Source: a virus
Lineage: Duplodnaviria > Heunggongvirae > Uroviricota > Caudoviricetes
Direction: 5' to 3' (one strand)
Length of the DNA stretch: 64,000 bases
IMG/VR virus record: IMGVR_UViG_2571042445_000002
Shown: piece by piece, positions 39,658 through 62,164 of the stretch
Layout of the letters: each line of letters starts with the position of its first letter
Numbering within the stretch: position 1 is the first letter of the stretch
The notes under the pieces: generated by a model
Told to the model about the DNA's origin: nothing
Seen by the model: only the letters and a program-made list of their open reading frames with translations
Database searches by the model: none
Program-made: the position numbers and the translations under genes

Positions 39658-39748
39658 AAGAGAGGGGCAGAATGCCCCTTTCTTCTTAAAATAGTCACCG
39701 AAATAACACACTTTTTACACTGCCTTTTTTACAGAAAGGTGGTTAATT

Positions 39749-48051: not shown

Positions 48052-48238
48052 GCTCCGAATGAAAAAAGAGCAATAACTATGTTGAGAATGTGATTTCTAT
48101 TACACCAAACATTATTAAACGGCATTCATCTTTAACTTTATTCAATGTATTATCTAACAGAAAAGTTAAGTTGCGCTAAGTTAATGATAACACTGGTTAT
48201 TATTGGTTTGCGTTATTTATTTGAGAAAAGAGAAAGTT

Positions 48239-48736
48239 ATGAAAAAAGCAATATTAGCGACTATTGTTTGTGCATTTGCATTATCAGGATGCGCTCCGGT
48301 TCAGACATACAACAAGCCTCAGCAAGTAAAACAGTTTGTTAAACGCCCAGCATTCCCTGTAGAGGAATATCAGGCATTGCCGAAAAAAGGCACAGGTAAG
48401 GTTAAGGGGGAATTATTTGGAGTAACTCGCGGAGGGGATGTGAAGATTGGTGCTGGCTCCAATATCATACTGCGTCCGTATACTTCATATATCAAAAATA
48501 CCCCCAAAATTGATTACGACACTCAGACCTTAGAAATAATCGACGGCAGGGTTGCGGAATATGACAGAACTGTCCTGACTGATGCTCAAGGCAAATTTGA
48601 GTTCGAAAACGTACCACCAGGCCAGTATGAAGTGATTGGTTCGTTCAGTTGGTATGCTGGAAATTTCCCGCAAATCGTTCTTCTGAACAAAATCATTACC
48701 GTTAAGAACGGTGATGTTATCCAGGTTCAACCATGA
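48239..48736 (+). CDS. lipoprotein (possible carboxypeptidase-regulatory-like beta-sandwich domain)
   Basis: Signal peptide MKKAILATIVCAFALSGC with lipobox LSGC; C-terminal GKFEFENVPPGQYEV motif; AT-rich. Confidence 0.55.
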   Translation: MKKAILATIVCAFALSGCAPVQTYNKPQQVKQFVKRPAFPVEEYQALPKKGTGKVKGELFGVTRGGDVKIGAGSNIILRPYTSYIKNTPKIDYDTQTLEIIDGRVAEYDRTVLTDAQGKFEFENVPPGQYEVIGSFSWYAGNFPQIVLLNKIITVKNGDVIQVQP

Positions 48737-48848
48737 TCCCCTTTTGAGTAAGAACCTTCGGGGTGTGATTCTGCGAAATTAACACACTCCATACCCTCTC
48801 AAACCGTACCGCTTAAGGCGGATTTAACGGTTTTGAGGGGGGCTTCCT

Positions 48849-51800
48849 TTGGACAAAATAATTGATTCAATTAGCCAGGCCACCAGCATTGGGGCGCTGA
48901 TTGAAATTGTTAGTCGGTTGCATAAACCGCGAGCTGTAGTGACCTTTGGCGTTAAGAAAGTCGATGGCGTCAGTATTCAGAAAACACGCCGGGCAGCAAA
49001 CAACGCCGCAGTAAATCTTCTTAATTCCCTTCCGCCTGGCTTCGATGGGGCGAAATTAACTGACGAACAGCGCCAGATTCTTGCCGGGTATACCGGTGAA
49101 GGCGGCCTGACAGATGGTGAGGGCAGCCAATACGAATACTATACGCCACAGTTTATGGCAGAAGGTATATGGGATCTCTTCGGCGACTACGGTATTGATA
49201 GCGGTCACGTACTGGAACCGTCAGCAGGCACAGGTATTTTCCAGGAGACAAAACGGCAGGGCATGATAATGACCAGTGCCGAACTGTCTCCGATCTCCGG
49301 TCGAATAAACCAGCTTTTGCACCCGGAAGATGATGTGAATATCGGGGCGTTTGAGGCGCTGGCGGCGAAAGATGCAATGTATGACCACGCAGTTGGTAAC
49401 GTACCGTTTGGCGAAGGGCGTTCCGGCGTCGCCGGGCTTGATCCGGCATATGCAAACGAGAAGAACGTTGGCAATTATTTTGTGCTGCGCACGATCGACA
49501 AGGTTAAGCCTGGTGGACTAATTGTATTGGTGGTGCCGAATGGCATGACCGATGGTACGAAATACAAAAAATTGCGCGATAAAGTCAGCCGTAAAGCGGA
49601 ATTTTTGGGCGCGCATCGTATGCCTTCTGGTACGTTCAGCGAATCCGGTACAGATACCGTGGTGGACGTATGGGTATTGCGTAAACACCCGGAAACCTTC
49701 CTGGAGATGATCCCCGACACGGATGATGCAACGCTCAAATCGGCAAACGTCCTTTGGGATACCTTCCTCAAAGGGAAATGGTTTACAACCGAAGGGAAGC
49801 GATTTGTTTACGGCGACATGGAACGCACCAGCTTCCGCAATACCCTGGTGGTGAAAAAGGACGGTCGTGTATCCAATGAGTCGATGAAAACCGCGTTATC
49901 ATGCCGCTTTGAAAGCCGTATTAATTGGGATTTGCTCGGAGTAACTACCCAGGCATGGCAGGGCGCAAAAGTAGGGGATAAGCGTCTTGTAGGCGGTATC
50001 TGGCATGAGTTTGATGGCCTGAAATGGGTTAAGGACACGACAACCAAATCCTCCGCGCTTGATGTAAGTCGATATGGTGTTTCGACGTTTGGCGATCTGC
50101 AGATCGCGTTCCAGTCAACAAACGGGATTCTGGCTTTGTCATGGGACCAGATATCGGCGATCGCGTCCGACTATCCATCGGTTGTCAGTGATGAAGTGGC
50201 AGCAATGATTCGCTTTGCTGGCAAACAGCGAGAAAAAGACAGGGAGCGCGTTATGCGCGGTGCGTTGATAGGGCAGTTGATCAACAAGGCACTTGATTTG
50301 CGTAACCTGGGGGTGAACGTTGATGACAAACTGGCAGATGCATCCCGCCTGGCGGCAGCAGAAGTTGCGAAGTATGGACCACCGCACGCGATTAAGCTGA
50401 ATGGGCTTGCTGAAGCTGGCGCTAAAAACTGGATGACGTTCACTGGCAATGTGAAACAGGATGGTTCCACTTCTGACCTTCTGGCAGGGCGACTTGATGT
50501 AACGGATGGTGCTGCCGGTATTGACTTTACACGTCCGGAACAAGTGATAGCACATCTTTTCAGTGATGTAGCCCTTAATCCTATAACGCTGGGCGACTTT
50601 CGTGAGGCGTTTGCTGGTGAACTGCCAGAGGACGACGACGCGGCCCTTGAATACCTGGCGAAATTTGATGATATCGCTATTGATGGGTATGGCTGCCTGC
50701 TGCCGATGGACCGCGCCACCAGCGGCGATATTGTAACCAAAACAGCATTGCTGGTGGGCTGGCGTGATGCATCAACAGGTGAGCAGAAAGCGAACTTTGA
50801 GCGTCAGTTGGCGAAAATCGAAGAGAAACGCATTTTCACGCCACTAAATAAAGTCACCGTTAATCTGAACGCCCGCTGGCTGGATCGCCGCTTGATAAAA
50901 GAGTTCCTGGCAGAGCAGGGCTATGACGAGTTTAAGTACACTGAACCTGATCTGAAGGTCGTCGATGGCATTCTGGTATCTCCGGACGATTACGAAGGTA
51001 AGGACGGGGTATTTACCGGCTATCAGCTACGAACCGTAAACGGCAAAAACGGGAATGAGTTCAAGAAGGCCAACAATAAAGACGGCTTCCTGAACCAGTT
51101 AGAAAACTACCTGAACGGTGTTAAACCGCGTGGGCAGAACGCTAACGAGTACCTGGATAAAATTGCTCAACTGGAAGTTAGCTTTAACGACTGGTTACGC
51201 ACCCACCCGCAGGCGGATCAGATAGCCCGTGACTATAACGACGCATTCAATGGCTTCATTCCGTTCACGCACTCTAACGCACCGCTTGGCCTGGAAGGGA
51301 TTAGTGGAAAGCGCATTCCTCTGACTTATCAGAATGAAGAAGTTCGTCGCTTGTCAGAAGATGGGCGCGGCATCATGGGATTTGGTACCGGGCTGGGTAA
51401 AACCACGACCGCGCTTGCGCTTGAGGCGTATAACTTCGAAACAGGTCGTACTAAACGCACGTGTATTGTTGTTCCGAAGGCGGTTTATCAGAACTGGTAT
51501 CACGAGGCACAGAGCTTCTACAGTGCTGATGCCTTCGCCAATATGATGTTTATCGGTCTGGATGAAGTTCGTGATGACAGCGGAAATATTCTGACCGCTC
51601 CGGTGCTTGATGAAAATGGCGAACCCCGCCTCGACAGTAACGGGCAGCCTCTTACCAGAAATGTTGTGAAAGAGTCCGCCAGCGCCGTTATCGTTCAGCG
51701 CATGAACATGATCCCGTCGTCAAATTGGCGAACGGTCATCATGACAAAAGAACAATTCGCGTCTATCCCGCTACGAGAAAAAACCATCGAGGAGAACTCA

Positions 51801-54800
51801 CAGCAAGCTGTCTTTAATGCTGTGGAAATGGGGCGTCTTGACCTGGCGTCTGGTAAACACCGTGATGCGCAGAAGAAGAACAAGATTAAGGATCAGGCCG
51901 CGAATACCGGTACAACGAAGAAGCAGAATATCCCGTACTTTGAGGATATGAACTTCGATAGCGTGATAGCCGACGAGGGGCATAACTACCGCAACTCCTT
52001 TAATGCCGGGCGTGAAGCGGGACAACTGGCATATTTGCCTAACCCGGCAGTATCCAAGATGGCCCGCGACATGGCTGTAAAAGCTGCGTACATGATGAAA
52101 CGCAACAACGGGCGTGGTGTAGTCATGCTGACGGCAACACCGCTGGTGAACAGTCCGATTGATGCCTTCAACATGCTGTCTACTGTCATTCCGCAGGAAG
52201 AGTGGATGCGCATGGGCATCATTACGCCTGATGATTTCGTTCGTGTGTTTGGTAAAACAGCCACAGTTCAGGTCCAGAAAATTTCCGGGGAAGTGGAAGA
52301 GAAGCAGGGGCTGGTTGGCTTCCAGAACCTTGATGGCCTGCGTGGTATTTTCCATCGCTGGACTACTCTGAAGACTGCTGCGGACGTCGGGGCGACGGTT
52401 AAAATCCCTGATATTGTCGAGAATACCTTGCAGATCCCGATGACAGGGGAGCAGGAGGCTGCTTATGAAGAGCTTCGTAAGCGTGCACAGGAGTTAAGTA
52501 GTAAAGATGCGCTGACGGTTGATGAAAACGGGCATATCACAAACGAAAAACCGGATGATTTCATCTTCTCCATCATCCGCGACATGGATAAGGTTGCTAT
52601 AGATCCGGATCTGTATGCCAGTGCGATTACATTCCAGTTCCCCGTTGAGCTTGCAGACAAGGTAAAAGCTATTGCTGATGCCCTGCCAAAAGTAGCTGGC
52701 GGTAAAGTGGCAGATGATGCAGACGAGGCCGAAGAAGACGGCGCTGGTGGGCTGGTTAGTACGCGCACCAGTAAGGTAGTGAAGACCACCTTTAGTGAAC
52801 ATCCGGCGCATGTTGAAATACGTGCCAGCATTGAACTGGAAGCTGAAATACTGAAGGCCATTGCTGCCGCCGGGATTGATATGCAGCAGGTATCACACCC
52901 AATCCCGCCGAAGTATGCCGCGCTGATCGAAAACCTTCGTGAAGGTCTGAAGAACGGTAAACAAATTGTCTTCATTGATGAAAAAGCCCAGCACCAGAAG
53001 CTGCGCCGTATTATCGCCAGTGCACTGCAAATGCCGGAGCAGGAGATAGGCATTATCAATGCGACGACCGTTAGCCAGGCTGGCGGCATCAAGCTGAAGA
53101 AGGTGAATAAGCCGACTGAACCTACTCCGAATAAAAATGGTGAATACAAAGAAGGGGCATGGGAAACCTACTACAGCAAACTTGCCCAATATGAGGATTA
53201 TCTCTCAGCTAAAAATGATGCTGGCCTTGAGGGTATGGAAGGCATTGCCGCCGACTATAACGAAGGGCGCACGCGCATAATTATCTGTAACAAGAAGGCT
53301 GAAGTAGGTATTAACCTGCATATCGGGACAACCGATATCCACCACCTGACACTACCCTGGACACCAGCCAGTATCGACCAACGAAATGGGCGCGGTGCGC
53401 GCGTAGGTTCACCGCAAGAGAAGGTCAATGTTCACTACTATTGTGGCAAAGGCACATTCGACGACTTCCGTCTGGATACGCTGAAACGTAAGAAAGACTG
53501 GATCAAGATGGTGATGACCTCCGACATGTCAGAGATCGCCAATGGTGATGCGGATGATGCTGATGAACGCGCCATTATGCTGGCGGCAAACCCGGAAGAA
53601 CGCCGCGCAATCATGGCTCGCCAGGCGCAAGAGCGTGAAGAACGTCTGAAACTGAAAGCACAGCGCGAGGCCAACAATGCTCTCGATATCTACCTGAAAG
53701 CGGCAAACGCCGCTGGAAAAGATATCGGCATGATGGAGACAGAACTGAAAAGCGCGATGGAACAGATAGAGTATTACCAGCGAAATCTTGACGACCTGAT
53801 AAAAGCGGGTACGAACAGGAATGGGCAAAAATTCGCGCTTGAGCAGTTGAGTAGCTACAGAAAACGTGCGCGGGTGCTGCGGTTTGCGATCACCAGGGCA
53901 AAAGACGCGGATACCATAATGAAACGCTCTCGTGGTGATGTGGAGCGCGCTATTAAGTCTGGTGTGCTGGATATCAGTATCGATGTTATTCAGAACCCAC
54001 AGGAATATATGCGCACTGACAAGAATATCCTGTTGCATAAAGGTAGTTATTACCGTGCAGTCATTGATGATCGCGAAACAACAGCGATTGTCCGGGTGGA
54101 AAAAATTGACGGTGAAAAAGCACAATACCTCTGCCGTATCGCCTGGCTGGATAGAGCAAGTCGTTACGCTCGAGCACCGGGGTCAATCGTTACATTGCCG
54201 TTTGACTCTGTGATTGAAGCGGTAACTTTTGAAGAGGGGGTAGCTGAATCGCGCGCAACGGCTGCGCGTGGTGTTCAGTGCCACCAGCTATCAACAATAC
54301 TTACTCGCGATCAGTTCTATGATGCTATTCGCAATGGGGTAATGAATGTTATTGCTGGTAAACCTGGTAATGCATGGGGCGGTGGGTCAGCTATTAAATA
54401 CTGGGCATATCGCACAGATGATGGTCAGATCGCGCTGTCATCGGCCTATGATGGCGTGATAGGCCAAAAAATCGGGCGAGCATCGGATATAGCACCTGAA
54501 CGATGGATATATCCAGATGGCAACGATGAGGCGCTGAAGCGTGAAGTGGCAAAAATACAAGCCAGTGATAACCCGCTGAATATCGTGGACGGCGAGGGAT
54601 TCCTCCAGGCATTGTATGGGTATGATTACATCCAGGGAATGCAGGCATGGGGCGCACAGGCAACGATGGATGATGTTGTCCAGGAGTTCGAAAACTGGAT
54701 GGCTGGGCGTGGTCTGTCAGGTCGTTCGCTTAATAAAGTCACTTCTGAAGATATTCTTAGCTTGTTCCGCAAACCGTCCGGAGAAGGTCTGGAATCATTC

Positions 54801-55685
54801 TGGAGGACCGTGCTGGCATACCGTTTATTCAAGGGCAGAATGAAAGCCTTTAGCAATATCGATGATATTGAACGGATGTTTAATCAGGTCAAGATCGCCA
54901 AAATTAAGACGAAGATCGAAAAAACACGTTCTGCGCTGGTGGCCTGGCGCGATGCATTGTTTGAGCAATATAAATCACTCAGTGATGCAGATGGATGGGC
55001 GGCATTGGAACAGTTGGCGAATAATGGGGTAGATGGAGCGAAACTCGCCATAGTCCAGGCTGATAACCCCCTGGAATCACCGGCAGCACAGTGGATTAAG
55101 GTGGGGGCTGTCATCAATGCATTTGATGAAAAACACATTAGTAAGGACGATTTTGCTGATGCTGTTTCTGTTAATCGCCTGGTAGAAATGGCTACCCGCC
55201 GCGCCCGTGAGTTGAAAGACGGTGACTATGTGAATGAGTTGCCGGATGCGCTCAAATCAGCAACGTGGCAAGACTATGTATCGCTGAAAAACGGCGGGGC
55301 CACCGAATCAGAGATCGCGGAAAGGCTTGAACAGGCTGAAAGCAAAAGAGAAGAGCAGGCGGCAGTGGCTGAAGCCAGAGCTGATGAAGCGGCGAATGAT
55401 GACTATATCATTGTGGTTAATGATAAGCCGATTCGCGCTAAGGCGCGTGTTCGCGGGCGCTGGTGGAGTGTCAGCGAGGACGTCGGTGCGGTTTATCTCA
55501 TTGCCGACCAACCAGGTTCCTCGACAATACGGAACGCCAAAGACGCGATTAAGAAGATTGGCGGGCGTTTCTGGAATTTTGAAGCAAACCCGGTTGCTGA
55601 TGTGAACTTTGACCGTCCTGCATGGATGGTATCTACGCGTTACTCGGTAGATGAACTGCGTAAAATAATCGCCGATGCGGCCTAA
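48849..55685 (+). CDS. darB: DarB-like giant N6-adenine methyltransferase / SF2 helicase fusion (anti-restriction candidate)
   Basis: 2278 aa; MTase motif I VLEPSAGTGIF and motif IV-like GNVPFG near N-terminus; helicase motifs GFGTGLGKTT (Walker A), VIADEGHNYRN (DExH), LTATPLVNS, RNGRGARVG; size matches P1 DarB as recalled; TTG start. Confidence 0.7.
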   Translation: MDKIIDSISQATSIGALIEIVSRLHKPRAVVTFGVKKVDGVSIQKTRRAANNAAVNLLNSLPPGFDGAKLTDEQRQILAGYTGEGGLTDGEGSQYEYYTPQFMAEGIWDLFGDYGIDSGHVLEPSAGTGIFQETKRQGMIMTSAELSPISGRINQLLHPEDDVNIGAFEALAAKDAMYDHAVGNVPFGEGRSGVAGLDPAYANEKNVGNYFVLRTIDKVKPGGLIVLVVPNGMTDGTKYKKLRDKVSRKAEFLGAHRMPSGTFSESGTDTVVDVWVLRKHPETFLEMIPDTDDATLKSANVLWDTFLKGKWFTTEGKRFVYGDMERTSFRNTLVVKKDGRVSNESMKTALSCRFESRINWDLLGVTTQAWQGAKVGDKRLVGGIWHEFDGLKWVKDTTTKSSALDVSRYGVSTFGDLQIAFQSTNGILALSWDQISAIASDYPSVVSDEVAAMIRFAGKQREKDRERVMRGALIGQLINKALDLRNLGVNVDDKLADASRLAAAEVAKYGPPHAIKLNGLAEAGAKNWMTFTGNVKQDGSTSDLLAGRLDVTDGAAGIDFTRPEQVIAHLFSDVALNPITLGDFREAFAGELPEDDDAALEYLAKFDDIAIDGYGCLLPMDRATSGDIVTKTALLVGWRDASTGEQKANFERQLAKIEEKRIFTPLNKVTVNLNARWLDRRLIKEFLAEQGYDEFKYTEPDLKVVDGILVSPDDYEGKDGVFTGYQLRTVNGKNGNEFKKANNKDGFLNQLENYLNGVKPRGQNANEYLDKIAQLEVSFNDWLRTHPQADQIARDYNDAFNGFIPFTHSNAPLGLEGISGKRIPLTYQNEEVRRLSEDGRGIMGFGTGLGKTTTALALEAYNFETGRTKRTCIVVPKAVYQNWYHEAQSFYSADAFANMMFIGLDEVRDDSGNILTAPVLDENGEPRLDSNGQPLTRNVVKESASAVIVQRMNMIPSSNWRTVIMTKEQFASIPLREKTIEENSQQAVFNAVEMGRLDLASGKHRDAQKKNKIKDQAANTGTTKKQNIPYFEDMNFDSVIADEGHNYRNSFNAGREAGQLAYLPNPAVSKMARDMAVKAAYMMKRNNGRGVVMLTATPLVNSPIDAFNMLSTVIPQEEWMRMGIITPDDFVRVFGKTATVQVQKISGEVEEKQGLVGFQNLDGLRGIFHRWTTLKTAADVGATVKIPDIVENTLQIPMTGEQEAAYEELRKRAQELSSKDALTVDENGHITNEKPDDFIFSIIRDMDKVAIDPDLYASAITFQFPVELADKVKAIADALPKVAGGKVADDADEAEEDGAGGLVSTRTSKVVKTTFSEHPAHVEIRASIELEAEILKAIAAAGIDMQQVSHPIPPKYAALIENLREGLKNGKQIVFIDEKAQHQKLRRIIASALQMPEQEIGIINATTVSQAGGIKLKKVNKPTEPTPNKNGEYKEGAWETYYSKLAQYEDYLSAKNDAGLEGMEGIAADYNEGRTRIIICNKKAEVGINLHIGTTDIHHLTLPWTPASIDQRNGRGARVGSPQEKVNVHYYCGKGTFDDFRLDTLKRKKDWIKMVMTSDMSEIANGDADDADERAIMLAANPEERRAIMARQAQEREERLKLKAQREANNALDIYLKAANAAGKDIGMMETELKSAMEQIEYYQRNLDDLIKAGTNRNGQKFALEQLSSYRKRARVLRFAITRAKDADTIMKRSRGDVERAIKSGVLDISIDVIQNPQEYMRTDKNILLHKGSYYRAVIDDRETTAIVRVEKIDGEKAQYLCRIAWLDRASRYARAPGSIVTLPFDSVIEAVTFEEGVAESRATAARGVQCHQLSTILTRDQFYDAIRNGVMNVIAGKPGNAWGGGSAIKYWAYRTDDGQIALSSAYDGVIGQKIGRASDIAPERWIYPDGNDEALKREVAKIQASDNPLNIVDGEGFLQALYGYDYIQGMQAWGAQATMDDVVQEFENWMAGRGLSGRSLNKVTSEDILSLFRKPSGEGLESFWRTVLAYRLFKGRMKAFSNIDDIERMFNQVKIAKIKTKIEKTRSALVAWRDALFEQYKSLSDADGWAALEQLANNGVDGAKLAIVQADNPLESPAAQWIKVGAVINAFDEKHISKDDFADAVSVNRLVEMATRRARELKDGDYVNELPDALKSATWQDYVSLKNGGATESEIAERLEQAESKREEQAAVAEARADEAANDDYIIVVNDKPIRAKARVRGRWWSVSEDVGAVYLIADQPGSSTIRNAKDAIKKIGGRFWNFEANPVADVNFDRPAWMVSTRYSVDELRKIIADAA

Positions 55686-55721
55686 CAGATAAGGAGCGGC
55701 CCCAACCGGGGCCGAATTTGA

Positions 55722-56156
55722 ATGACGACATTAATTGACACTGTAAAACCGACGGAATCCTACCTTGAGGACATTTTGCCGCAGGCGCTCAATGGCAGGA
55801 GTGAAGAGGCGTTTCTGGATGCATATCTGGATGGCATGGCGGAAAGGCTGAAAAGAGATCCACAGCTTTATCATCTTTATGGGCCGTGGTGGCCTGCGCT
55901 TAAAACGTTATTGCTGGAGCGTGGCGACATATCATTTGGACAAGTTGTAGATAGTGATGTGGCAGAAATCTACAAAATGAGTCGCCCGGCGCTTACGGTT
56001 TTAGCCGGGCATCTGTATTCGAGCGATCGCCTGGAAAATGACGCGGTATACAATCCCGTTCATGCTCTGGAAGTCGCGCCTTATGCTGATGATACAGAGC
56101 CATACGTATACACAAGTTACGACGAGTCTATAGAGAAATATCGAATCGTGGGGTAG
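55722..56156 (+). CDS. hypothetical protein
   Basis: 144-aa ORF after GC hairpin 55697-55714. Confidence 0.4.
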   Translation: MTTLIDTVKPTESYLEDILPQALNGRSEEAFLDAYLDGMAERLKRDPQLYHLYGPWWPALKTLLLERGDISFGQVVDSDVAEIYKMSRPALTVLAGHLYSSDRLENDAVYNPVHALEVAPYADDTEPYVYTSYDESIEKYRIVG

Positions 56157-56158
56157 CC

Positions 56159-56419
56159 ATGCGGAAGAATCGTAGGTTTACGATCGACGACTTAAAAGCG
56201 TACTCACAAGGGAAGGGATACGCCCTTGAATACCACCGTTATAAGCGGGTATTTACCCTGCGGCATATAGAAAACCCTTCGAAATGGGGATGGATTTATT
56301 TTCCGCACACTGACGATAAGCTGGTGGGACTTGTTGATGATTTATCCTATGAAGGATGGATGATTGCTATCGACAAGGCGGTTACGGAAATTAACGAACC
56401 TGATAAAATAAACCATTAA
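56159..56419 (+). CDS. hypothetical protein
   Basis: 86-aa ORF, 2-nt gap from previous gene. Confidence 0.4.
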   Translation: MRKNRRFTIDDLKAYSQGKGYALEYHRYKRVFTLRHIENPSKWGWIYFPHTDDKLVGLVDDLSYEGWMIAIDKAVTEINEPDKINH

Positions 56420-56593
56420 AAATAACAAGTTGGGTAAATGACATACAATTTACCCGGCTTGTTGACCCGCATCACCATTTACTCTAAAAACAAGTCCGAC
56501 CTGTTGCATCCGCCTATCTCTTCAGTAGTATTCCCCTCGGTTTTGATAAAACTAACGCTCTTGTTATTATCGTGTTCATGATTTCAGGAAGTT

Positions 56594-56609
56594 TGTGTTA
56601 GAAATTTGA
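56594..56609. promoter_or_regulatory. operator-like motif TGTGTTAGAAATTTGA abutting the VRR-NUC start codon
   Basis: Motif ends at the ATG 56609; no SD present. Confidence 0.45.
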
Positions 56610-57052
56610 TGCGAAGACGCAGGCATCATAGTGCGTATTCTGAAATATCCCCGCACGCTGCTGCACTGAGAGAGTTAGAAAGAAATCCTGACTTATTAAA
56701 ACGGAATTACGAACATTACGAACAGGTTCGCGTTCTGGATTGGCTGTATCGCAACATGCGATACGTGTATGAGCACACACACTCAACACCGAACGGCGGC
56801 CTGAGAGGCAAAAGGACAGCCATTAAGATGGTGGCAGAAGGTCAGAAGAAGGGCTATCCGGACCTTTCTATTGACCTTGCTCGTGGTGGGTATCACGGAA
56901 TGCGCATTGAGATGAAGCACGGGAGAAACCGTCTGACTCCCGAACAGCTCGTCTGGATGACTCGCCTCACGGAAGCAGGCTATTACTGCTTTGAGGCGCG
57001 CAGTGCCGATGAAGCCATAAAAGCTATCACTGAATATGTAAATCTTGATTAA
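56609..57052 (+). CDS. VRR-NUC domain nuclease
   Basis: YEHYEQVRVLDWL ... GYPDLSIDLARGGYHGMRIEMKHGRNRLTPEQ matches VRR-NUC (PD-(D/E)xK) pattern. Confidence 0.55.
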   Translation: MRRRRHHSAYSEISPHAAALRELERNPDLLKRNYEHYEQVRVLDWLYRNMRYVYEHTHSTPNGGLRGKRTAIKMVAEGQKKGYPDLSIDLARGGYHGMRIEMKHGRNRLTPEQLVWMTRLTEAGYYCFEARSADEAIKAITEYVNLD

Positions 57053-57066
57053 ACGGAGAAATCGTT

Positions 57067-57267
57067 TTGCGTTTACTTAACGTGGCTGAACTTATCCCTG
57101 CCAGTGCTAACGTTGTTGCTCGTCGCTGCTCATGGCCTCATTCTTTCTGTATAGAGCTTAAAAAGATGGATGATGGGGCATTAGAAGCCCGAAACATAGT
57201 TACCGGCGACAAGGTATGCATTACCCCGGAAAGCGCGAAAGCCAATGATTGGGAGTTTGTTCATTGA
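57067..57267 (+). CDS. hypothetical small protein
   Basis: 66-aa ORF. Confidence 0.3.
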   Translation: MRLLNVAELIPASANVVARRCSWPHSFCIELKKMDDGALEARNIVTGDKVCITPESAKANDWEFVH

Positions 57268-57575
57268 GCAGAAAACACCACGTAAATCTGACGTTTGCTG
57301 ATGACGCCGGAAGAACCAGAAGCATAACCATGAAAGTTGCTTCCAGGAAAGTAACCGCGCCACTTATACGAGAGGCCGTAAGTGAACTTGATATGAGTGA
57401 GAATGCAGCTCTGTTATCGGTAAGCTGGCTGGGGAAAATGACGGATCAGGAATACTCGGATGGTATACCCCACGGTGAGCGGCAGATAGTAAAGCGCGCG
57501 TTTAGAATTTCAGAGGTAGTTGTCGTACTGATAGCTTTGATTTATATGGCATACATGCTACTCCAACACGTCTAA
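57249..57575 (+). CDS. hypothetical protein with C-terminal transmembrane helix
   Basis: C-terminus VVVVLIALIYMAYMLL. Confidence 0.3.
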   Translation: MGVCSLSRKHHVNLTFADDAGRTRSITMKVASRKVTAPLIREAVSELDMSENAALLSVSWLGKMTDQEYSDGIPHGERQIVKRAFRISEVVVVLIALIYMAYMLLQHV

Positions 57576-57646
57576 ACGGTCATAAACCCGCCAGTTGGCG
57601 GGTTTTTTGTTGCCTGAGTCTTTTTATTGAAATTGCATACTAATAA

Positions 57647-57670
57647 AATATGTTAGAAAACTAATTTCAA
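57647..57670. promoter_or_regulatory. operator-like motif AATATGTTAGAAAACTAATTTCAAG upstream of 57685 gene
   Basis: Core TGTTAGAAAA 57651-57660. Confidence 0.45.
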
Positions 57671-57684
57671 GAAAGGGAACAAAC

Positions 57685-58893
57685 ATGAGTCAGCAAGTAG
57701 AATCATCAAGCCTGGAGATCATCTCAACCGCAATTGAAACGCTGCGGACACAAATCGCGCTTATACAGAAACGAAATCCGGGCGATGACCTGTCAAAGCG
57801 ACTGCATGAGAGCGTCATTGCCACTACAGATAACCTGGTGGCGGAAATCAACCAGCTCCTTGATGATGGGGCAGTTGATTACAATAAGCTGGTGGATCAG
57901 TTTGAGGAATATCAGCAAGCCGTTAATGATGGCTTGATCCGTTTTTCTCAAGTCACTGGTGTATCAGCGACAGTTGAAAGCCTGGGGGATGCAGTTAATC
58001 AATTTGCCGCGAATATGCGTAATGAGATCGGCAATCTGGAGGCGCGTCTTGAGCAGGCAAATACACTGCGCAAATCTGCTGAAGTCGATTTGAGTCGTTA
58101 CAAAAAAGACTATCCGCCAAGCCTGACAAAACGACTGGATGTTGCGGAGAAAGATAACCGCACGCTGAAAAGAGAGCGTCGGGAACTAAAAGAGCGTTTA
58201 ACCAAGCTAAATCAGCAATGCGTTGAGTATCAAGGCGAACTCGTCACACTGCGTAAAAAGTTAGCAGCGGCGCAGAGCATTATTGAAACATTGAAACGAG
58301 AGTGCTCAGAGCTTGGTCATGATCTGAATCGCGCCTGTGGCATGGGGCAAAGGCCAGAGACATTCCCGCTAATGTATGACGGAAGAGAAGCTATTGCCTA
58401 TATCCATGAGTTTCCGCATGGTCTGGTCGCGGAGACTGGGCAACGTGGCGAAGCGTTGCTGACGGCAAATTACCATCAGCAAATCAGAACCAGCCGCCTG
58501 CTGACGATGGATGTGATCCCGTCAGTATGGGGAACGCCGCTTTACTACCGAATTCCTGGCTTCGAAACTGACTGGAATACCGACATAGACGAATGTCTGG
58601 CAGATAAAATTATGGCGTACCTTGAAACGGATTTTCCACGCTTGCATCGCCGGATTATGGACTCTAAGGATGCACCGATCGACGAATTGAAAATGCGTCC
58701 AGAGACGTTGGAGGCAATCAAGCAGACTGAGTTTGATACAGTGTTCAGTGTGGCCTGCATTCCAAGCAGCTTTCATGAAAGCATTCCGTTCATGCAGGGC
58801 GATCGCCGTCAGGAAATAATTGATGCTTGCCGGGTATGGGCGAACGAGTGGGATAAGAAGAACGGTGGAGTTGAAAATCTTTACGGGAAATAA
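57685..58893 (+). CDS. hypothetical protein with N-terminal coiled-coil
   Basis: 402 aa; SD AAAGGGAAC. Confidence 0.45.
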   Translation: MSQQVESSSLEIISTAIETLRTQIALIQKRNPGDDLSKRLHESVIATTDNLVAEINQLLDDGAVDYNKLVDQFEEYQQAVNDGLIRFSQVTGVSATVESLGDAVNQFAANMRNEIGNLEARLEQANTLRKSAEVDLSRYKKDYPPSLTKRLDVAEKDNRTLKRERRELKERLTKLNQQCVEYQGELVTLRKKLAAAQSIIETLKRECSELGHDLNRACGMGQRPETFPLMYDGREAIAYIHEFPHGLVAETGQRGEALLTANYHQQIRTSRLLTMDVIPSVWGTPLYYRIPGFETDWNTDIDECLADKIMAYLETDFPRLHRRIMDSKDAPIDELKMRPETLEAIKQTEFDTVFSVACIPSSFHESIPFMQGDRRQEIIDACRVWANEWDKKNGGVENLYGK

Positions 58894-58930
58894 TGTATTA
58901 GAAAATTAAAATTGTTTTTCTAACATATTG
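58893..58930. promoter_or_regulatory. operator-like palindrome ATGTATTAGAAAATTAAAATTGTTTTTCTAACATATTG
   Basis: Half-sites ATTAGAAAA and TTTTCTAAC inverted around AATTAAAATTG; second copy AGTGTTAGAAAGTAAATTTT at 59044-59063. Confidence 0.5.
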
Positions 58931-58981
58931 ATTATGTAGTTAACTTAACATAGAATTTTTCGTGCTGGTGGGGAGCTTCCC

Positions 58982-59044
58982 ATGTCGCTTGCGGGTTTGA
59001 TAGTCACTTCATTGTCTTTCCCCACCAGCATCAAACAATTTTAA
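58982..59044 (+). CDS. 20-codon hydrophobic small ORF (MSLAGLIVTSLSFPTSIKQF) enclosed by an 11-bp hairpin; candidate type I toxin-like peptide
   Basis: Stem 58964-58974 / 59019-29 sequesters the GGGGAG SD-like element; not in ORF track (below 60 aa). Confidence 0.25.
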   Translation: MSLAGLIVTSLSFPTSIKQF

Positions 59045-59553
59045 GTGTTAGAAAGTAAATTTTAAGGTAAGGGAAAGCTCCGGCACCGTGCAAATACATG
59101 CCCGGCAGGTTTAGTGCGTAAAGTGGTTTCAGCGAGAGCATTTTACGGAGTAAACGACAGTGACTTGAGCCACGGAAGGTCTTTTTATGGTGTTCATTGA
59201 TGATGATCTGGCAGTGAGTATGTTAAGTGGGCCAGGCTGCATCGGGTCATCATCAGTGCACATCCTCAACGTTAAGGAGGCGCAGAGTTGGGTTTTCCTC
59301 TTATTTTGCTGACTCTGAGTCTCCTTAACGTTGCGGTAATGCACCTATGCGGATGTGGCCTTGCATTGTGTCTTGAAAGAATGGGGTAAGGCCGGGGATA
59401 TCCTCAGGGGGAGGCACCCCCGCTGCAACGAACAGCCACAGACGGCAGTCGAGTGATGGAAACGTGCAAAGACTTTAAACCTCGTTACGGCTGGCGTGGC
59501 AAACGCGACAACCGAGACAGAGCGGTGACGGGCGGAGAGAGAGCCGCTTCAAG

Positions 59554-59628
59554 ATAAAAGCCGACTATGGATTCCTTTCTGCGGGCCTTTGAAAGTGAAT
59601 CTTGCTCAGGCAGTCGGCTTTTATGTTG
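59554..59628 (+). terminator. hairpin ATAAAAGCCGACT ... AGTCGGCTTTTAT (13-bp stem, large loop) with U-tract
   Basis: Perfect 13-bp complementarity 59554-59566 / 59612-59624. Confidence 0.4.
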
Positions 59629-59753
59629 ATACGTAGCGATAACCGCGACAGGCGCGGCGGTAAGTATGGCGGGGTTATTCCTTCCCCGTTGAGGACACCG
59701 AGTTGCCAGGTTGACCATACGCCTAAGTGGCAATACCGCGAGTGGGATATTTG

Positions 59754-59776
59754 CCCACCTTCGGGTGGGTGTTTTT
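59754..59776 (+). terminator. rho-independent terminator CCCACC-TTCG-GGTGGG + TGTTTTTT
   Basis: UUCG tetraloop hairpin followed by T6 run; implies a + strand transcript across the ORF-poor region. Confidence 0.65.
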
Positions 59777-60238
59777 TCAGTGTTTTCGTCATGGTTAGCG
59801 ACTTTGCGGCGGTTTAGAACCCGACCATTAAAGTAAATGCAAACGATGATCTGATGATGGTAGCGGCCTAAGAAGCCTGACGCCACGGGGTATGAGTCGT
59901 CCCCCGTCAAAAAATCGACCGCAGAGTGTCCCCGTCTGTGTATTAGGGAACGGGGAGGCATAACAGGCAAGGGCGCTGGTGTGATTAACCAGATGAATGA
60001 GAAGGGTCAGGTCTTTCTGGTCAGCGCCCTTACCTGTTACGTCCCTCCCGCGTAACAGCCATTGGTTAATGGCTTTCTGGGATAATGTCTTGTAACGGGT
60101 ATATCCCGTCATGCTGAAGGCGCTAATCACGCTGGAAGCCAGGGTTATGCATCCCCTGTTACCGAATTGCAGCCAGGGCGCGGTGCGCCGAAAAGCATAC
60201 GGAGGTGGAAGCCCTCGCCGGAGACGTACCCGGCAAGT

Positions 60239-60313
60239 GATGGTGTAGCTCAGTGGTAGAGCAGTTGGCTGTTAACCAACTGGTCGGTGGTTCGAATCCA
60301 CTCACCATCGCCA
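60239..60313 (+). tRNA. tRNA-Asn (anticodon GTT)
   Basis: Cloverleaf parsed manually: acceptor GATGGTG/CACCATC, D-arm GCTC-AGTGGTA-GAGC, anticodon loop CTGTTAA, T-loop TTCGAAT, 3' CCA encoded. Confidence 0.8.
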
Positions 60314-60315
60314 AT

Positions 60316-60391
60316 GCCGGTTTAGCTCAGTTGGTAGAGCGCCTGCCTTGTAAGCAGGATGTCAGCGGTTCGAGTCCGTTAACCGGCACCA
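60316..60391 (+). tRNA. tRNA-Thr (anticodon TGT)
   Basis: Acceptor GCCGGTT/AACCGGC, anticodon stem CCTGC/GCAGG with loop CTTGTAA, T-loop TTCGAGT, CCA encoded; 2 nt after tRNA-Asn. Confidence 0.8.
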
Positions 60392-60392
60392 A

Positions 60393-60479
60393 CACAACAG
60401 GTAAGGGTATTTTGCGACGTCGGAGATCGCCGAGCTTGGCAGAGGGTTCGAATCCCTACGAAGTACCCTTACCGTTGTG
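60393..60479 (+). other. tRNA-like element: canonical T-loop (GGTTCGAATCC) and D-arm-like hairpin enclosed by a 16-17 bp inverted repeat; lacks anticodon arm (pseudo-tRNA or structured RNA)
   Basis: IR CACAACAGGTAAGGGTA 60393-60409 / TACCCTTACCGTTGTG 60464-60479; cannot be folded into a full cloverleaf. Confidence 0.3.
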
Positions 60480-60579
60480 ATGAATGCACAGGCTGATGTG
60501 CCGCAACTACAGTAGTGCGCGCTTTGCGGGGCTTGCTACAACCCTGTGTCGGAGTTCAGCACCGACCATCACAATCACT

Positions 60580-60666
60580 GGAGAGTAGGGAGCATGGTGC
60601 TCAAGCGGTCTTGAAAACCGTCCCATTGCGCAAGCGATGATGGTTCGATTCCATTACTCTCCGCCA
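60580..60666 (+). tRNA. atypical tRNA-like gene, possibly tRNA-Ser(TGA) with long variable arm and unusual D-arm
   Basis: Acceptor GGAGAGT/ACTCTCC + G + CCA; anticodon arm GCGGT-CTTGAAA-ACCGT; T-arm GATGG-TTCGATT-CCATT; D-arm atypical (5-bp stem, 3-nt loop). Confidence 0.35.
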
Positions 60667-60922
60667 GCGCAACGTTAAGAGTATTTGGCTAATTAAGCGA
60701 ATGCCGGAAGCAGAACCGGATCACCAAATGCTCTTACCATTGCGGTGAATGCGGCTAAGCGCACGCGGAACAGTTAAAACAGTAAAGGTGGTCTTTTTAC
60801 TGGCGTAACGAGAATCCATAAGTGATCCGGCGTTAATTGTTAACTGGTTAACGTCACCGGGAGGCACCCGGCACCGCAACCTAACAGCAATGGCGTTTTG
60901 TCTTAAAAGGTGGCTGCAAGTG

Positions 60923-61051
60923 ATGGATTTTTGGGCGTTTGCCGATAAAAACCCGGAGTGGACATTATTGTTTCTGCTGGTGGTTGCATACGGGGTAGAG
61001 CAAGCGGCAAAAGCCTTACGCGGTTCTGGCAAAAAGCGTAAGCGTAATTAA
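60923..61051 (+). CDS. 42-aa small membrane protein candidate (MDFWAFADKNPEWTLLFLLVVAYGVEQAAKALRGSGKKRKRN)
   Basis: Single hydrophobic helix plus basic C-terminus; SD AAGGTGG; located between tRNA-like genes; below ORF-track size cutoff. Confidence 0.3.
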   Translation: MDFWAFADKNPEWTLLFLLVVAYGVEQAAKALRGSGKKRKRN

Positions 61052-61060
61052 CAGTAATCT

Positions 61061-61136
61061 GGCCCTTTAGCTCAGTGGTTAGAGCGGGCGACTCATAATC
61101 GCACGGTCACCGGTTCAAGTCCGGTAGGGGCCACCA
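61061..61136 (+). tRNA. tRNA with CAT anticodon, ileX-like (tRNA-Ile2/lysidine type or elongator Met)
   Basis: GGCCCTTTAGCTCAGTGGTTAGAGCGGGCGACTCATAATCGC...GGTTCAAGTCCGGTAGGGGCCACCA closely resembles E. coli ileX as recalled. Confidence 0.8.
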
Positions 61137-61588: not shown

Positions 61589-62164
61589 ATGTTAACGGCG
61601 AACGATAACGCGTATTCAGAAGATGATCTCGTTTTGAGTGACTTTATAGGGCGACGAGAATGCTGGACGCAAAAGCGCGAGGAGCTTTATGCAGCGTTAG
61701 TTCGTAAAGGCGTCAACATCGAAACCGCACAGAACGGTGATATGACAGTGGTAAGTGTTGGACTGCACGGCGTAAGTGTGTCAGCAATCAATCATGAGCC
61801 GTACATTGCGTTATCCGAGTCGATGGTAAGGTTAGTTAAGTTCCTGAAGTACACAGAAGCGAATAACGTGATCATCGCCAAAAAGAACATCCCGTTCTCA
61901 TCGGCCTTTTACTGGATGATGAAGGGGCTTGATGCCCGGCGAACATCATGGCCTAAAGGGAGCTATATATCGATGCTCCGTGGCAGTGTTGGTAGCAAAG
62001 AAAAGCTCGTCGAATTCCTGCCGGAAGAGGCATTCGATATTGTTGAAGGTTGTGATGTGATGGTTATGCCTCGCCTGGTAATGATGAATGGGGATTTACA
62101 GGCGCAGACAGACTGGTTTGCAACTGGAGTTGATATTATCGCTACTGACTGGGAGGTTTTTTGA
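61589..62164 (+). CDS. protein with C-terminal DUF2829/Tad2-like domain (candidate anti-defence signal sponge)
   Basis: C-terminal half SAFYWMMKGLDARRTSWPKGSYI ... NGDLQAQTDWFATGVDIIATDWEVF fits the recalled DUF2829 pattern (ARRxxW ... DWEV); start may be internal. Confidence 0.4.
   Translation: MLTANDNAYSEDDLVLSDFIGRRECWTQKREELYAALVRKGVNIETAQNGDMTVVSVGLHGVSVSAINHEPYIALSESMVRLVKFLKYTEANNVIIAKKNIPFSSAFYWMMKGLDARRTSWPKGSYISMLRGSVGSKEKLVEFLPEEAFDIVEGCDVMVMPRLVMMNGDLQAQTDWFATGVDIIATDWEVF

Follow-up and report, generated by a model that had tools for sequence, protein, structure and literature searches.

Which functions are encoded directly downstream of the giant gene darB (48849-55685, 2278 aa), and do these genes add to the antirestriction system next to which they lie? 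The question is raised by six plus-strand open reading frames at 55722-58893 of the window, i.e., the whole stretch of 64,000 nucleotides that was analyzed, which the initial annotation regarded as uncharacterised genes with candidate anti-defence or DNA-processing functions. Sequence comparisons identify the window as a D6-type, P1-like phage-plasmid of E. coli: its nucleotide identity is 86% with phage D6 and 99.9% with the E. coli plasmid NZ_LR890273, several deposited plasmids are 99-99.9% identical to it, and the block is carried by 113 PLSDB plasmids. All six open reading frames are real genes under purifying selection (dN/dS 0.03-0.41 in comparison with D6 and an E. fergusonii plasmid). 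The label of unknown function was upheld only in part: ORF2 and ORF4 belong to phrogs of unknown function, but ORF1-ORF6 correspond gene by gene to D6 orf14 to orf9 and four of the six have named P1 homologues, namely ulx, pmgM, pmgR and pmgS. Judged by homology, the block represents these already annotated genes and is a largely ordinary region. Its gene order is kept in relatives down to 26% PmgS identity, P1 is the only relative in which it is not attached to darB, and the window holds the full Dar set (hdf, darA, ddrA, ddrB, darB, ulx). Beyond the existing annotation, the analysis suggests an (HhH)2 domain in PmgS, a possible Tad2-like domain in ORF4 and a membrane-anchor-like tail in the D6-group PmgR; two "unknown" proteins have testable predicted roles, in DNA binding and possibly the blocking of a bacterial immune signal. 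With a probability of roughly 70%, the block is the conserved segment distal to darB in a phage-plasmid of D6 type and P1 family, and comprises three transcription units, predicted to be the last part of the darB-ulx operon followed by two early units under repressor control.

In the first unit, ulx and ORF2 would finish the darB operon. ORF1 (55722-56156, 144 aa; phrog_1629 'Ulx-like anti-restriction', E 4.5e-59) shows 46% full-length identity to P1 Ulx (E 1.5e-38), corresponds to D6 orf14 (dN/dS 0.05-0.07) and is by homology Ulx, the accessory protein of Dar antirestriction. In P1, Ulx was shown to be a virion head protein that aids DarB localisation (PMC9024508); by homology, it would be packaged into the capsid here and help to load DarB, which would protect injected DNA from type I restriction as in P1. 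The darB-ulx junction (55694-55721, plus strand), read from the sequence and folded, consists of GGAG, a 7-bp G+C hairpin (55698-55715), 6 nt and the ulx ATG. This hairpin is kept, by compensatory base changes, all the way from P1 to the D6 group, shows GNRA or UUCG loops in relatives, and is proposed to act as a hairpin-bridged Shine-Dalgarno or as an mRNA stabiliser. ORF2 (56159-56419, 86 aa; phrog_6844, E 3.3e-47) starts 2 nt after the ulx stop, corresponds to D6 orf13 (dN/dS 0.17) and is a conserved small protein, also present in the relatives L010, L012 and L016-L018; it has no similarity to P1 Lxc, encoded at the same position in P1. A hairpin conserved in D6 follows on the plus strand (56424-56463, core stem 56432-56455). 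The stem scan reports it on the minus strand with a T-run, the E. fergusonii plasmid has TTTTTT after it on the plus strand, and it is probably a weak end of the darB-ulx-ORF2 transcript.

The remaining two units are marked by a motif that had been noticed as operator-like. The 9-mer TGTTAGAAA occurs in 10 exact copies in the window, compared with 0.64 +/- 0.72 in shuffles, and it also forms an inverted pair in front of the lpa-like gene. Across the whole D6 genome, such sites are found upstream of c1, lpa, repL, icd/ant, hrdC-dmt, ref and pmgS, i.e., genes of the P1 C1 regulon, while the P1 genome contains none and shuffles contain 0-2. In P1, pmgR-pmgS are annotated under the C1 operators OpmgRa/b. 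Motif enrichment and the analogy to the P1 regulon predict that TGTTAGAAA is the core of what corresponds, in D6-type elements, to the C1-repressor operator of P1, in support of the earlier suspicion, and it differs from the P1 operator sequence ATTGCTCTAATAAATTT. As these are predicted D6-type C1 operators, both units should be silent in the lysogen and would be switched on early after induction or infection. Upstream of ORF3, promoter scan and conservation point to two promoter-like elements (56504-56570, plus strand), TTGCAT-N16-TAGTAT (56504-56531) and TTGATA-N16-TATTAT (56543-56570), the latter with 10 of 12 consensus positions and a TG extension; both hexamer pairs are kept in D6 and E. 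fergusonii with varying spacers. A single operator overlaps the ORF3 start (56590-56612, minus strand; position-weight-matrix score 20.5). Its core TGTTAGAAA (56596-56604, plus strand) is invariant in D6 and E. fergusonii and a TTAGAA half-site lies upstream of the equivalent gene in L010 and L012; it is a single half-site with flanks poorly conserved in D6, scoring there below the scan threshold. ORF3, ORF4 and ORF5 would follow in this second unit, closed by a strong intrinsic terminator (57584-57605, whole feature 57584-57613, plus strand; terminator scan) with a 9-bp stem (6 G-C pairs) and TTTTTTG, which is kept in five relatives with compensatory changes. The third unit would consist of ORF6 behind a promoter-like site, TTGAAA-N16-TATGTT (57627-57654), that is overlapped by an inverted-repeat operator with the halves CTAATA (57640-57645) and TGTTAGAAA (57651-57659) (whole feature 57627-57667, plus strand; promoter scan, matrix score 26.9). 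The block CTAATA(A/T)AAT..TTAGAAAA is kept in D6, E. fergusonii, L010 and L012, and the arrangement resembles the P1 bivalent operator Oban-ab. The last gene of the block thus indeed has its own predicted operator, as had been described.

ORF3 (56609-57052, plus strand, 147 aa, or 148 aa from TTG 56606) is a PmgM-like stand-alone VRR-NUC nuclease, in agreement with the initial annotation: it matches Pfam VRR_NUC (PF08774) with 26.2 bits against a gathering score of 23.8 (E 8.9e-6) and the solved stand-alone VRR-NUC psNUC (4QBL) with E 1.1e-16, the motifs HxxPNGG, GYPD and ExK are conserved (D85, E101, K103), and it is 56% identical to P1 PmgM. In vitro, psNUC was reported to form dimers and to resolve Holliday junctions (PMC4103454). 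Like ORF3, psNUC, stNUC (4QBO) and saNUC (4QBN) are phage-borne, single-domain proteins with about 110 core residues (Pennell et al., 2014, PMC4103454). ORF3 shares with psNUC the catalytic motifs and the insertion between beta-1 and beta-2, but unlike these stand-alone enzymes it is extended at the N-terminus by about 35 residues, the first of which are rich in arginine; P1 PmgM has about 45 further N-terminal residues compared with ORF3. ORF3 may therefore be pictured as a dimeric junction-resolving nuclease trimming branches from replicating or recombining phage DNA, whereby headful packaging could proceed. P1 deleted for pmgM or for pmgS formed normal plaques, and its restriction phenotype on EcoA, EcoB and EcoK hosts did not change (PMC9024508), and both genes are dispensable by deletion and CRISPRi (PMC9024508; PMC10695390); any DNA-processing role is therefore redundant or conditional. 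That ORF3 is a 5'-truncated, decaying pmgM remnant, of which only the PGAP-called 74-aa C-terminal piece or nothing is expressed, would agree with this dispensability, with the absence from the D6-group proteins of about 35-45 N-terminal residues found in P1, L015 and L016, and with the disagreement of annotated starts, giving 74, 147, 157 and 164 aa. It is nonetheless extremely improbable: dN/dS is 0.03 over residues 8-147 (D6) and 0.12 (E. fergusonii), helix alpha-1 and the HxxPNGG strand lie upstream of the PGAP start, the 4QBL alignment begins at residue 38, and all relatives retain the basic stretch at the N-terminus and the SPHAAAL motif.

The start of ORF3 had been described as abutting the operator with no ribosome-binding site. 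This is accurate: the ATG (56609) follows the 9-mer after 4 bases (TTTG), and the sole purine-rich stretch before it, AGGAAG (56586-56591), lies 17 nt upstream and hence provides no usable Shine-Dalgarno. Such weak initiation might hold the nuclease at a low level. A leaderless mRNA with its 5' end at this ATG, as had been suspected, would also fit; the operator would then double as a -10 region, its core containing TAGAAA, which matches 4/6 of TATAAT and stops 4 nt short of the ATG. The idea is very improbable and unsupported, however, because the conserved promoter elements, which are also the better ones, lie 40-100 nt upstream with the operator between them and the ATG; moreover, the conserved T at the last position is missing from TAGAAA, whose best -35 partner reaches 3/6. 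D6 and the E. fergusonii relative do not have this ATG, and the equivalent genes start with an ATG behind an AGGTG Shine-Dalgarno (L010) or with GTG (L012). As the start codon varies among relatives, the N-terminus given here is provisional.

ORF4 (57067-57267, plus strand, 66 aa, TTG start; phrog_7206) is found in only 5 clusters among 5.8 billion proteins. It may be a diverged Tad2-like/DUF2829 (anti-Thoeris) domain, as suggested by hhalign against a validated Tad2-like alignment (probability 61.8%, E 7.7e-5, 51 columns), by BLASTP against the window's own clear Tad2-like protein, encoded 2.7 kb downstream (E 2e-4), and by the genes at its position in L016 and L015, which have a Tad2-like C-terminus (Pfam domain confirmed in L016; judged by sequence reading and alignment in L015). 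It shares RRxxW...G...P...DWE with validated domains and is about domain size (Tad2/DUF2829 sponges such as SPO1 Gp34.65, 8SME, 89 aa; Pfam model 73; Yirmiya et al., bioRxiv 10.1101/2023.05.01.538930), but unlike Tad2 it has no Pfam or PDB match by HMMER, and all Tad2 tests with HMMER were negative. ORF5 (103 aa, phrog_9115, E 5e-50; phrog_3177, the P1 PmgR family, E 6.8e-10) runs to 57575 on the plus strand. Its most probable start is TTG 57264, which overlaps the stop codon of ORF4 (TTGA), and not 57249 (108 aa). ORF5 is 29% identical to P1 PmgR with the common motif (S/Y)(W/Y)LGKMT. Residues 82-100 reach a mean Kyte-Doolittle value of 2.4 (19-residue window) compared with a maximum of 0.88 in P1 PmgR, which lacks such a tail, so that a membrane-anchor-like C-terminal helix is predicted for the D6-group PmgR. 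P1 pmgR is essential and needed for complete virions, its deletion giving tails and incomplete heads (PMC9024508; PMC10695390); the PmgR-like protein would supply this function, here tethered by the hydrophobic tail. Such a tail is hard to square with a head-completion protein.

ORF6 (57685-58893, plus strand), the PmgS-like protein of 402 aa, is composed of the coiled coil that had been noted (6-217), a beta domain (226-285), helices (299-329) and an (HhH)2 region (about 331-393). The C-terminus of PmgS proteins is an (HhH)2 domain like that of the RNA polymerase alpha-CTD, which argues against the label as scaffold. The window's own PmgS does not pass Pfam HHH_5 and its second hairpin has MQGD in place of G-I-G. 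The residue aligned with R265, the DNA-contact residue of the alpha-CTD, is glutamate. PmgS may form coiled-coil oligomers and use (HhH)2 to bind DNA or an RNA polymerase partner, rather than serve as a capsid scaffold.

Do the six genes then form an anti-defence island, most or all of them extending the Dar system, the nuclease or PmgS neutralising the nucleic-acid machinery of host defences and ORF4 soaking up Thoeris signals as a small Tad2-type sponge? Ulx is a genuine Dar component, the linkage to darB and the Tad2-like resemblances point in this direction, and early, repressor-controlled expression suits such genes. The unchanged antirestriction on EcoA, EcoB and EcoK after P1 pmgM and pmgS deletion (PMC9024508 supplement), the assembly phenotype of P1 pmgR, the PADLOC and NCBIfam matches to ORF6, which cover the coiled coil only, and the negative HMMER results of ORF4 make it unlikely for the block as a whole. 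Anti-defence is secure for Ulx only, with ORF4 as a candidate through its weak but repeatable resemblance to Tad2-like domains, and the DNA-processing proposal fits the nuclease and the (HhH)2 domain but meets the dispensability of both P1 genes. That the genes serve virion assembly, as implied by the name pmg (putative morphogenetic), the GenBank label of D6 orf9 ('putative prohead scaffolding protein') and the 'head and packaging' label of phrog_1660, appears more improbable still. The P1 pmgR phenotype and the long coiled coil, typical of scaffolding proteins, agree with it; the dispensable pmgS and pmgM, the nuclease identity of ORF3, the (HhH)2 end of PmgS and a location behind repressor operators, not late promoters, away from portal, protease and capsid genes, do not. 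PmgS is never mentioned (0 occurrences) in the main text of the paper on the P1 virion proteome (PMC9024508). The preferred reading remains the darB-distal segment with three transcription units.

Among known systems, D6 (NC_050154 / MF356679) and D6-like plasmid prophages of E. coli and Salmonella carry these six genes behind darB in identical order, and D6 has the same operators and terminator; it differs in lacking the ATG directly after the operator and in its proteins, ORF5 being only 51% and ORF2 and ORF4 about 70-73% identical. In P1 (NC_005856), where identity goes down to 22% for PmgS, ulx likewise directly follows darB, and the adjacent pmgR-pmgS are annotated as C1-controlled, the group lying upstream of lpa-pacAB-c1. 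Unlike in the window, darB-ulx is about 70 kb away from pmgM...pmgS, lxc follows ulx, and pmgN-O-P-ppp-pmgQ lie between pmgM and pmgR. The RNA polymerase alpha-CTD and the RAD51 N-terminal domain are (HhH)2 folds as well, whereas in PmgS a 210-residue coiled coil and a small beta domain are joined to it, the D6 clade has a degenerate glycine motif in the hairpin, and the alpha-CTD DNA-contact residues are not conserved in the alignment.

The window belongs to the P1 family of phage-plasmids and is of the D6 type. Over 55600-59000 it shares 86% identity with Escherichia phage D6 and 99.9% identity with the E. coli plasmid NZ_LR890273, and the block of genes downstream of darB is carried by 113 PLSDB plasmids, nearly all of them from E. 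coli and Salmonella. The darB gene is located at 48849-55685 and encodes a protein of 2278 aa with 43% identity to P1 DarB. The initial annotation had placed six ORFs behind this gene, and six ORFs on the + strand (ORF1 to ORF6) were indeed recovered, which correspond one-to-one to D6 orf14 to orf9. Pairwise dN/dS values of 0.03-0.41 for the six ORFs, obtained against D6 and an E. fergusonii plasmid, indicate that they are real genes. P1-family genomes are already known to contain the block, which is annotated in D6 and in over 100 sequenced phage-plasmids of E. coli and Salmonella; P1 names exist for four of its genes. The first observation was confirmed and its interpretation was partly supported; the useful yield is a corrected annotation together with a few testable predictions.

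ORF1 (55722-56156, + strand) is the homologue of P1 Ulx, as judged from its match to phrog_1629 (E 4.5e-59) and from 46% identity to P1 Ulx across 138/144 residues (E 1.5e-38). It lies 36 nt downstream of darB, and in P1 ulx also directly follows darB; the remaining Dar genes hdf, darA, ddrA and ddrB are found in the window at 36726-41095. P1 Ulx was reported to be a head protein that aids the localisation of DarB (PMC9024508). Incorporation into the head and the need for DarB loading are taken from the P1 data, and ORF1 is likened to P1 Ulx by homology. ORF1 certainly belongs to the anti-defence functions, as the Ulx component of Dar antirestriction. At the darB-ulx junction (55694-55721) a 7-bp G+C hairpin comes immediately after the motif GGAG, and 6 nt separate it from the ulx ATG. 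This layout is kept from P1 to every D6-group relative, with compensatory changes in the stem (C-G to T-A, G-C to C-G, CC/GG to GG/CC) and with GNRA or UUCG tetraloops in the relatives. The hairpin looks like part of a hairpin-bridged "split" Shine-Dalgarno sequence, an arrangement described for T4 gene 38, or like a 3' stabiliser of the darB mRNA. At the other end of darB, immediately ahead of its TTG start, a long G+C-rich inverted repeat (CCCTCTCAAACCGT ... ACGGTTTTGAGGGGGG) lies at 48770-48848, which may be the terminator of the preceding lipoprotein-like gene (48203-48736) or a regulatory structure.

ORF2 (56159-56419, + strand) starts 2 nt past the ulx stop and is kept throughout the group; no relatives of known function were detected for it. 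It occupies the position of lxc in P1 but is unrelated to Lxc, and an assignment as Lxc homologue was rejected on the basis of a BLASTP E of 5.6 and of separate PHROGs. Sequence searches of the PDB with the single sequences of ORF1 and ORF2 returned nothing meaningful.

The 9-mer TGTTAGAAA is present in 10 exact copies in the window, compared with 0.64 +/- 0.72 in shuffled sequences. The sites share their flanks, with the opposite-strand consensus AATTTAATTTTCTAACAYA, and several occur as inverted pairs, one of which precedes the lpa homologue. Scanning of the full D6 genome with a position-weight matrix made from the window sites gave matches upstream of c1, lpa, repL, icd/ant, hrdC-dmt, ref, a pdcB-like gene and pmgS, i.e., essentially the operon set annotated as C1-controlled in P1. 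The same scan found no D6-type sites in the P1 genome, with 0-2 matches in shuffled D6. The sites do not follow the 17-bp P1 consensus ATTGCTCTAATAAATTT, with which they have the TCTAA(Y)A core alone in common, and this difference fits a related repressor of different specificity. By analogy, the motif would be the D6-type C1 operator, placed before the same operons as in P1 as single sites or inverted pairs; c1 is located outside the window. P1-type late-promoter boxes (AAGTGACTT with a -10 element) are absent from the block, and the whole window holds one doubtful match, distant from the block. A conserved AGTAGTAT element was considered as a repeated late-promoter box and rejected, as it is unique in the window.

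The block can be divided into three putative transcription units. Unit 1 comprises darB, ulx and ORF2, separated by gaps of 36 and 2 nt, without an internal promoter in the promoter scan, and ends at a conserved hairpin (56424-56463) that has a proper T-run in the E. fergusonii relative. Unit 2 comprises ORF3 to ORF5 and is headed by two promoter-like elements on the + strand (56504-56531 and 56543-56570), the second with 10/12 consensus positions and a TG extension; both hexamer pairs are kept in relatives, while their spacers vary. These elements are followed by a single operator (56590-56612) and then by ORF3, whose start the operator overlaps. ORF4 and ORF5 both have a good Shine-Dalgarno sequence, ORF5 overlaps the ORF4 stop, and a strong terminator at 57584-57605, kept by compensatory changes in five relatives, closes the unit. 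Unit 3 consists of ORF6, which has a normal Shine-Dalgarno sequence and is preceded by a promoter-like site that an inverted-repeat operator overlaps (57627-57667), an arrangement also kept in five relatives. As operators lie upstream of both units and P1 annotates pmgR-pmgS under the operators OpmgRa/b, units 2 and 3 are probably early, repressor-controlled genes by analogy with P1, and not late morphogenetic ones. A 47-aa ORF at 56438-56581 was dismissed as a gene candidate, as it sits in the promoter region and carries a 2-nt indel in the D6 alignment. Just left of the pmgS operator core, at 57632-57649, the sequence ATTGCATACTAATAAAAT resembles P1-type operators such as O26 (ATTGCACTAATAATTTT) save for a 2-nt insertion; it may serve as the second arm of a bivalent operator, or it may be a relic.

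ORF3 (56609-57052, + strand) is the PmgM homologue, with 56% identity to P1 PmgM. It matches Pfam PF08774 VRR_NUC with 26.2 bits, above the gathering threshold of 23.8 (E 8.9e-6), and aligns to psNUC (PDB 4QBL) with an E of 1.1e-16, with the GYPD (D85), IEMK (E101, K103) and HxxPNGG motifs intact. The protein psNUC and two phage VRR-NUC proteins (stNUC and saNUC) were shown to be dimers that cut Holliday junctions symmetrically (PMC4103454), and by analogy with these three enzymes ORF3 may be a junction-cutting homodimeric nuclease. The initial annotation had described a VRR-NUC gene whose ATG stands beside an operator-like motif and lacks a Shine-Dalgarno sequence, which is what the gene shows. 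The leaderless mRNA that had been raised along with it is unlikely. Conserved promoter hexamers are found 40-100 nt upstream of the ATG and would put the transcript start ~30-70 nt upstream, with the operator within the leader; no -10 element is present ~7 nt before the AUG, where the best local hexamer, the TAGAAA of the operator, is without the critical final T; and the ATG is not conserved. D6 has no ATG at that place and its annotated TTG start lies inside the promoter, the annotation of the E. fergusonii plasmid starts the homologue at a GTG at about +1, the relative L012 uses a GTG that corresponds to the operator GTT of the window, and in the relative L010 an AGGTG Shine-Dalgarno sequence accompanies an ATG. 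The more distant homologues of P1 and of the lineages L015 and L016 have ~35-45 further N-terminal residues. Possibly, the arrival of the promoter-operator region in the D6 clade was accompanied by a remodelling of the gene's 5' end, and each lineage would now rely on any weak start at hand; a low level of expression would suit a nuclease that cuts junctions.

In the incomplete PLSDB gene table of the E. coli plasmid NZ_LR890273.1, the VRR-NUC gene is given as 74 aa with a start corresponding to window 56828, a call by which helix alpha-1 and the HxxPNGG strand are cut off. The dN/dS of 0.03 and the presence of essential fold elements upstream of this 74-aa PGAP call argue that ORF3 is not decaying. 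ORF4 and ORF5 do not appear in the same incomplete table, for a plasmid that is nearly identical to the window over the block.

ORF4 (57067-57267, + strand) encodes 66 aa and is represented by five sequence clusters only. Tad2, a DUF2829 protein of 89 aa, sequesters gcADPR (bioRxiv 10.1101/2023.05.01.538930), and comparisons of ORF4 with this family gave a mixed picture. BLASTP of ORF4 against the window's own Tad2-like protein gave an E of 2e-4. In two distant lineages, the position between pmgM and pmgR is taken by a protein of 172-182 aa whose C-terminus is Tad2-like; in L016 this protein passes the Pfam Tad2 model (26.0 bits, gathering score 25), and in L015 it was assigned by sequence reading and alignment. 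An hhalign comparison of the ORF4 family with the Tad2-like alignment gave a probability of 61.8% and an E of 7.7e-5 over 51 columns, which include the RRxxW and the C-terminal DWE motifs, and the Tad2-like alignment itself matches the solved Tad2 structure 8v3e with an E of 9.7e-9. On the other side, ORF4 has no match to Pfam PF11195 even at E 10, its profile found no solved Tad2 chains in the PDB, hhalign against a 3-sequence Tad2 alignment was negative, and among 2908 local ORFs the profile ranks the window's Tad2-like protein 6th, with an E of 0.62. A Tad2-like fold of ORF4 is a real possibility that falls somewhat short of even odds, and ORF4 can be listed as another anti-Thoeris candidate. 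The window's own Tad2-like protein (191 aa) is encoded at 61589-62164, and its Tad2-like (anti-Thoeris) domain is clear (Pfam PF11195, E 4.4e-10). Its homologue D6 orf6 is annotated as hypothetical, and a Tad2-like gene of the same length lies just upstream of lpa in L010 and in the further relative L011 too.

ORF5 (57264-57575, + strand) is PmgR-like (phrog_3177, E 6.8e-10), with 29% identity to P1 PmgR (E 5e-4 against the P1 genome). It is positioned immediately upstream of pmgS in all relatives examined, and pmgR and pmgS remain neighbours in each of the lineages examined, even in one where PmgS identity is 21%. P1 PmgR is a small soluble protein of ~72 aa; ORF5 encodes 103 aa with a C-terminal hydrophobic helix, which is found in every D6-group homologue (window, D6, L010, L012). 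The mean Kyte-Doolittle value over a 19-residue window is 2.4 for ORF5 and 1.75-2.4 in the D6 group, compared with 0.88 for P1 PmgR. This membrane-anchor-like hydrophobic end of the D6-group protein, encoded at 57504-57575, is without counterpart in P1 PmgR. P1 pmgR is essential and its deletion results in tails and incomplete heads; PmgR could not be demonstrated as a virion component (PMC9024508). A hydrophobic helix is unexpected for a head-completion protein. In the E. fergusonii plasmid NZ_CP099330 (L006, 5760-5770), the pmgR-like gene carries a 1-nt frameshift in a C-run, which is either a sequencing error or a mark of a pseudogene.

ORF6 (57685-58893, + strand) is PmgS-like (phrog_1660, E 3.8e-143), and P1 PmgS aligns with it at full length over residues 2-395 (E 3e-11). 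The initial annotation of a 402-aa coiled-coil gene behind its own operator-like site was borne out. The family comprises 86 representative clusters in which the full-length architecture is kept; a second homologue search with an alignment added no new PmgS relatives. A PDB search with the single sequence gave nothing meaningful. With a 47-sequence family profile, the last ~70 positions match (HhH)2 domains, i.e., the Brr2 Sec63 unit (E 5e-7), the RAD51 N-terminal domain (E 4.7e-6) and the RNA polymerase alpha-CTD (E 7.4e-6), and hhalign against E. coli alpha-CTD gave an E of 1.7e-4. ORF6 itself matches neither Pfam HHH_5 nor RNA_pol_A_CTD, models that are passed by 5/47 and 4/47 family members, respectively. 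The AlphaFold2 model built with the 47-sequence alignment is confident, with a pLDDT of 85 (64 with 10 sequences), and consists of coiled-coil helices (6-217), a small beta domain (226-285), helices (299-329) and an (HhH)2 domain extending to 393; the C-terminus superposes on the (HhH)2 fold. In the window's own sequence the second hairpin is degenerate, and the residue aligned with R265, a DNA-contact residue of alpha-CTD, is not conserved. In NCBIfam and PADLOC scans of the six proteins, the sole consistent signal was coiled-coil noise of ORF6 (SMC, Rad50, JetC, LmuB), with scores well under the NCBIfam cut-offs; the remaining matches were single and weak (ORF2 to Rrp4, E 0.004; ORF1 to PDC-S05, E 0.0096).

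Neither "head morphogenesis" (the PHROGs label) nor "putative prohead scaffolding protein" (that of D6 GenBank) fits ORF6 well. The gene does not lie in a head module as an essential late gene; a repressor operator precedes it, and the portal, protease and capsid genes are far away. Published P1 data show pmgS to be dispensable by deletion and CRISPRi, and the P1 virion-proteome paper does not mention PmgS in its main text. Given the (HhH)2 end seen in profile and model, the scaffold/head label is probably wrong, and a DNA-binding or polymerase-contacting coiled-coil protein appears to be the better hypothesis.

That the block is a candidate for further anti-defence or DNA-processing functions was sustained in part. 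Ulx is a certain case, VRR-NUC and PmgS are plausible DNA-processing proteins and ORF4 is possibly an anti-defence protein. Against a general anti-defence role stand the P1 pmgM and pmgS deletions, whose restriction phenotype was parent-like on EcoA, EcoB and EcoK hosts in published P1 data, and the pmgR deletion, which has an assembly phenotype. A more far-reaching reading can be put forward, to which we assign a probability of about 0.15. Units 2 and 3 would form a repressor-controlled early module that prepares the phage DNA and disarms host immunity. In this module ORF4 would be a cryptic, highly diverged Tad2-type sponge; PmgS would be an unrecognised SMC-like coiled coil with an alpha-CTD-like (HhH)2 domain that binds DNA or hijacks or mimics RNA polymerase alpha contacts; and the function of PmgR that is essential in P1 would be performed at the membrane.

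As an entity the block is ordinary; what it offers is a corrected annotation, open to testing, for plasmid prophages of a very common family that includes carriers of resistance genes. The gains are a D6 immunity-type operator motif with its regulon, three transcription units instead of one string of genes, the nuclease start mis-called in RefSeq, two small genes absent from the incomplete plasmid table, evidence that the PmgS label is probably wrong, and one more candidate for an anti-Thoeris function. In P1, a standard phage of the laboratory, pmgR and pmgS rank among the most conserved genes without an assigned function (PMC9603915).

Beyond ORF6, two operators form an inverted pair at 58890-58931, a promoter-like site lies at 58928-58956 and one more operator at 59040-59062. 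These sites are followed by ~1.3 kb without a long ORF and by four tRNA genes on the + strand (60239-61136), i.e., Asn, Thr, Ser(tga) and Met. In the D6 RefSeq record (L001, 13519-14224), three tRNA genes are listed opposite to the pmgS strand; ARAGORN places them on the pmgS strand, as in the window. The layout of 58890-61136 resembles that of P1, in which a bivalent ban operator, a dicF-like region and tRNA genes head the ban operon. In overall gene order, darB-ulx-(ORF2)-pmgM-X-pmgR-pmgS ... lpa is the common arrangement of the family, and P1 is the rearranged exception.
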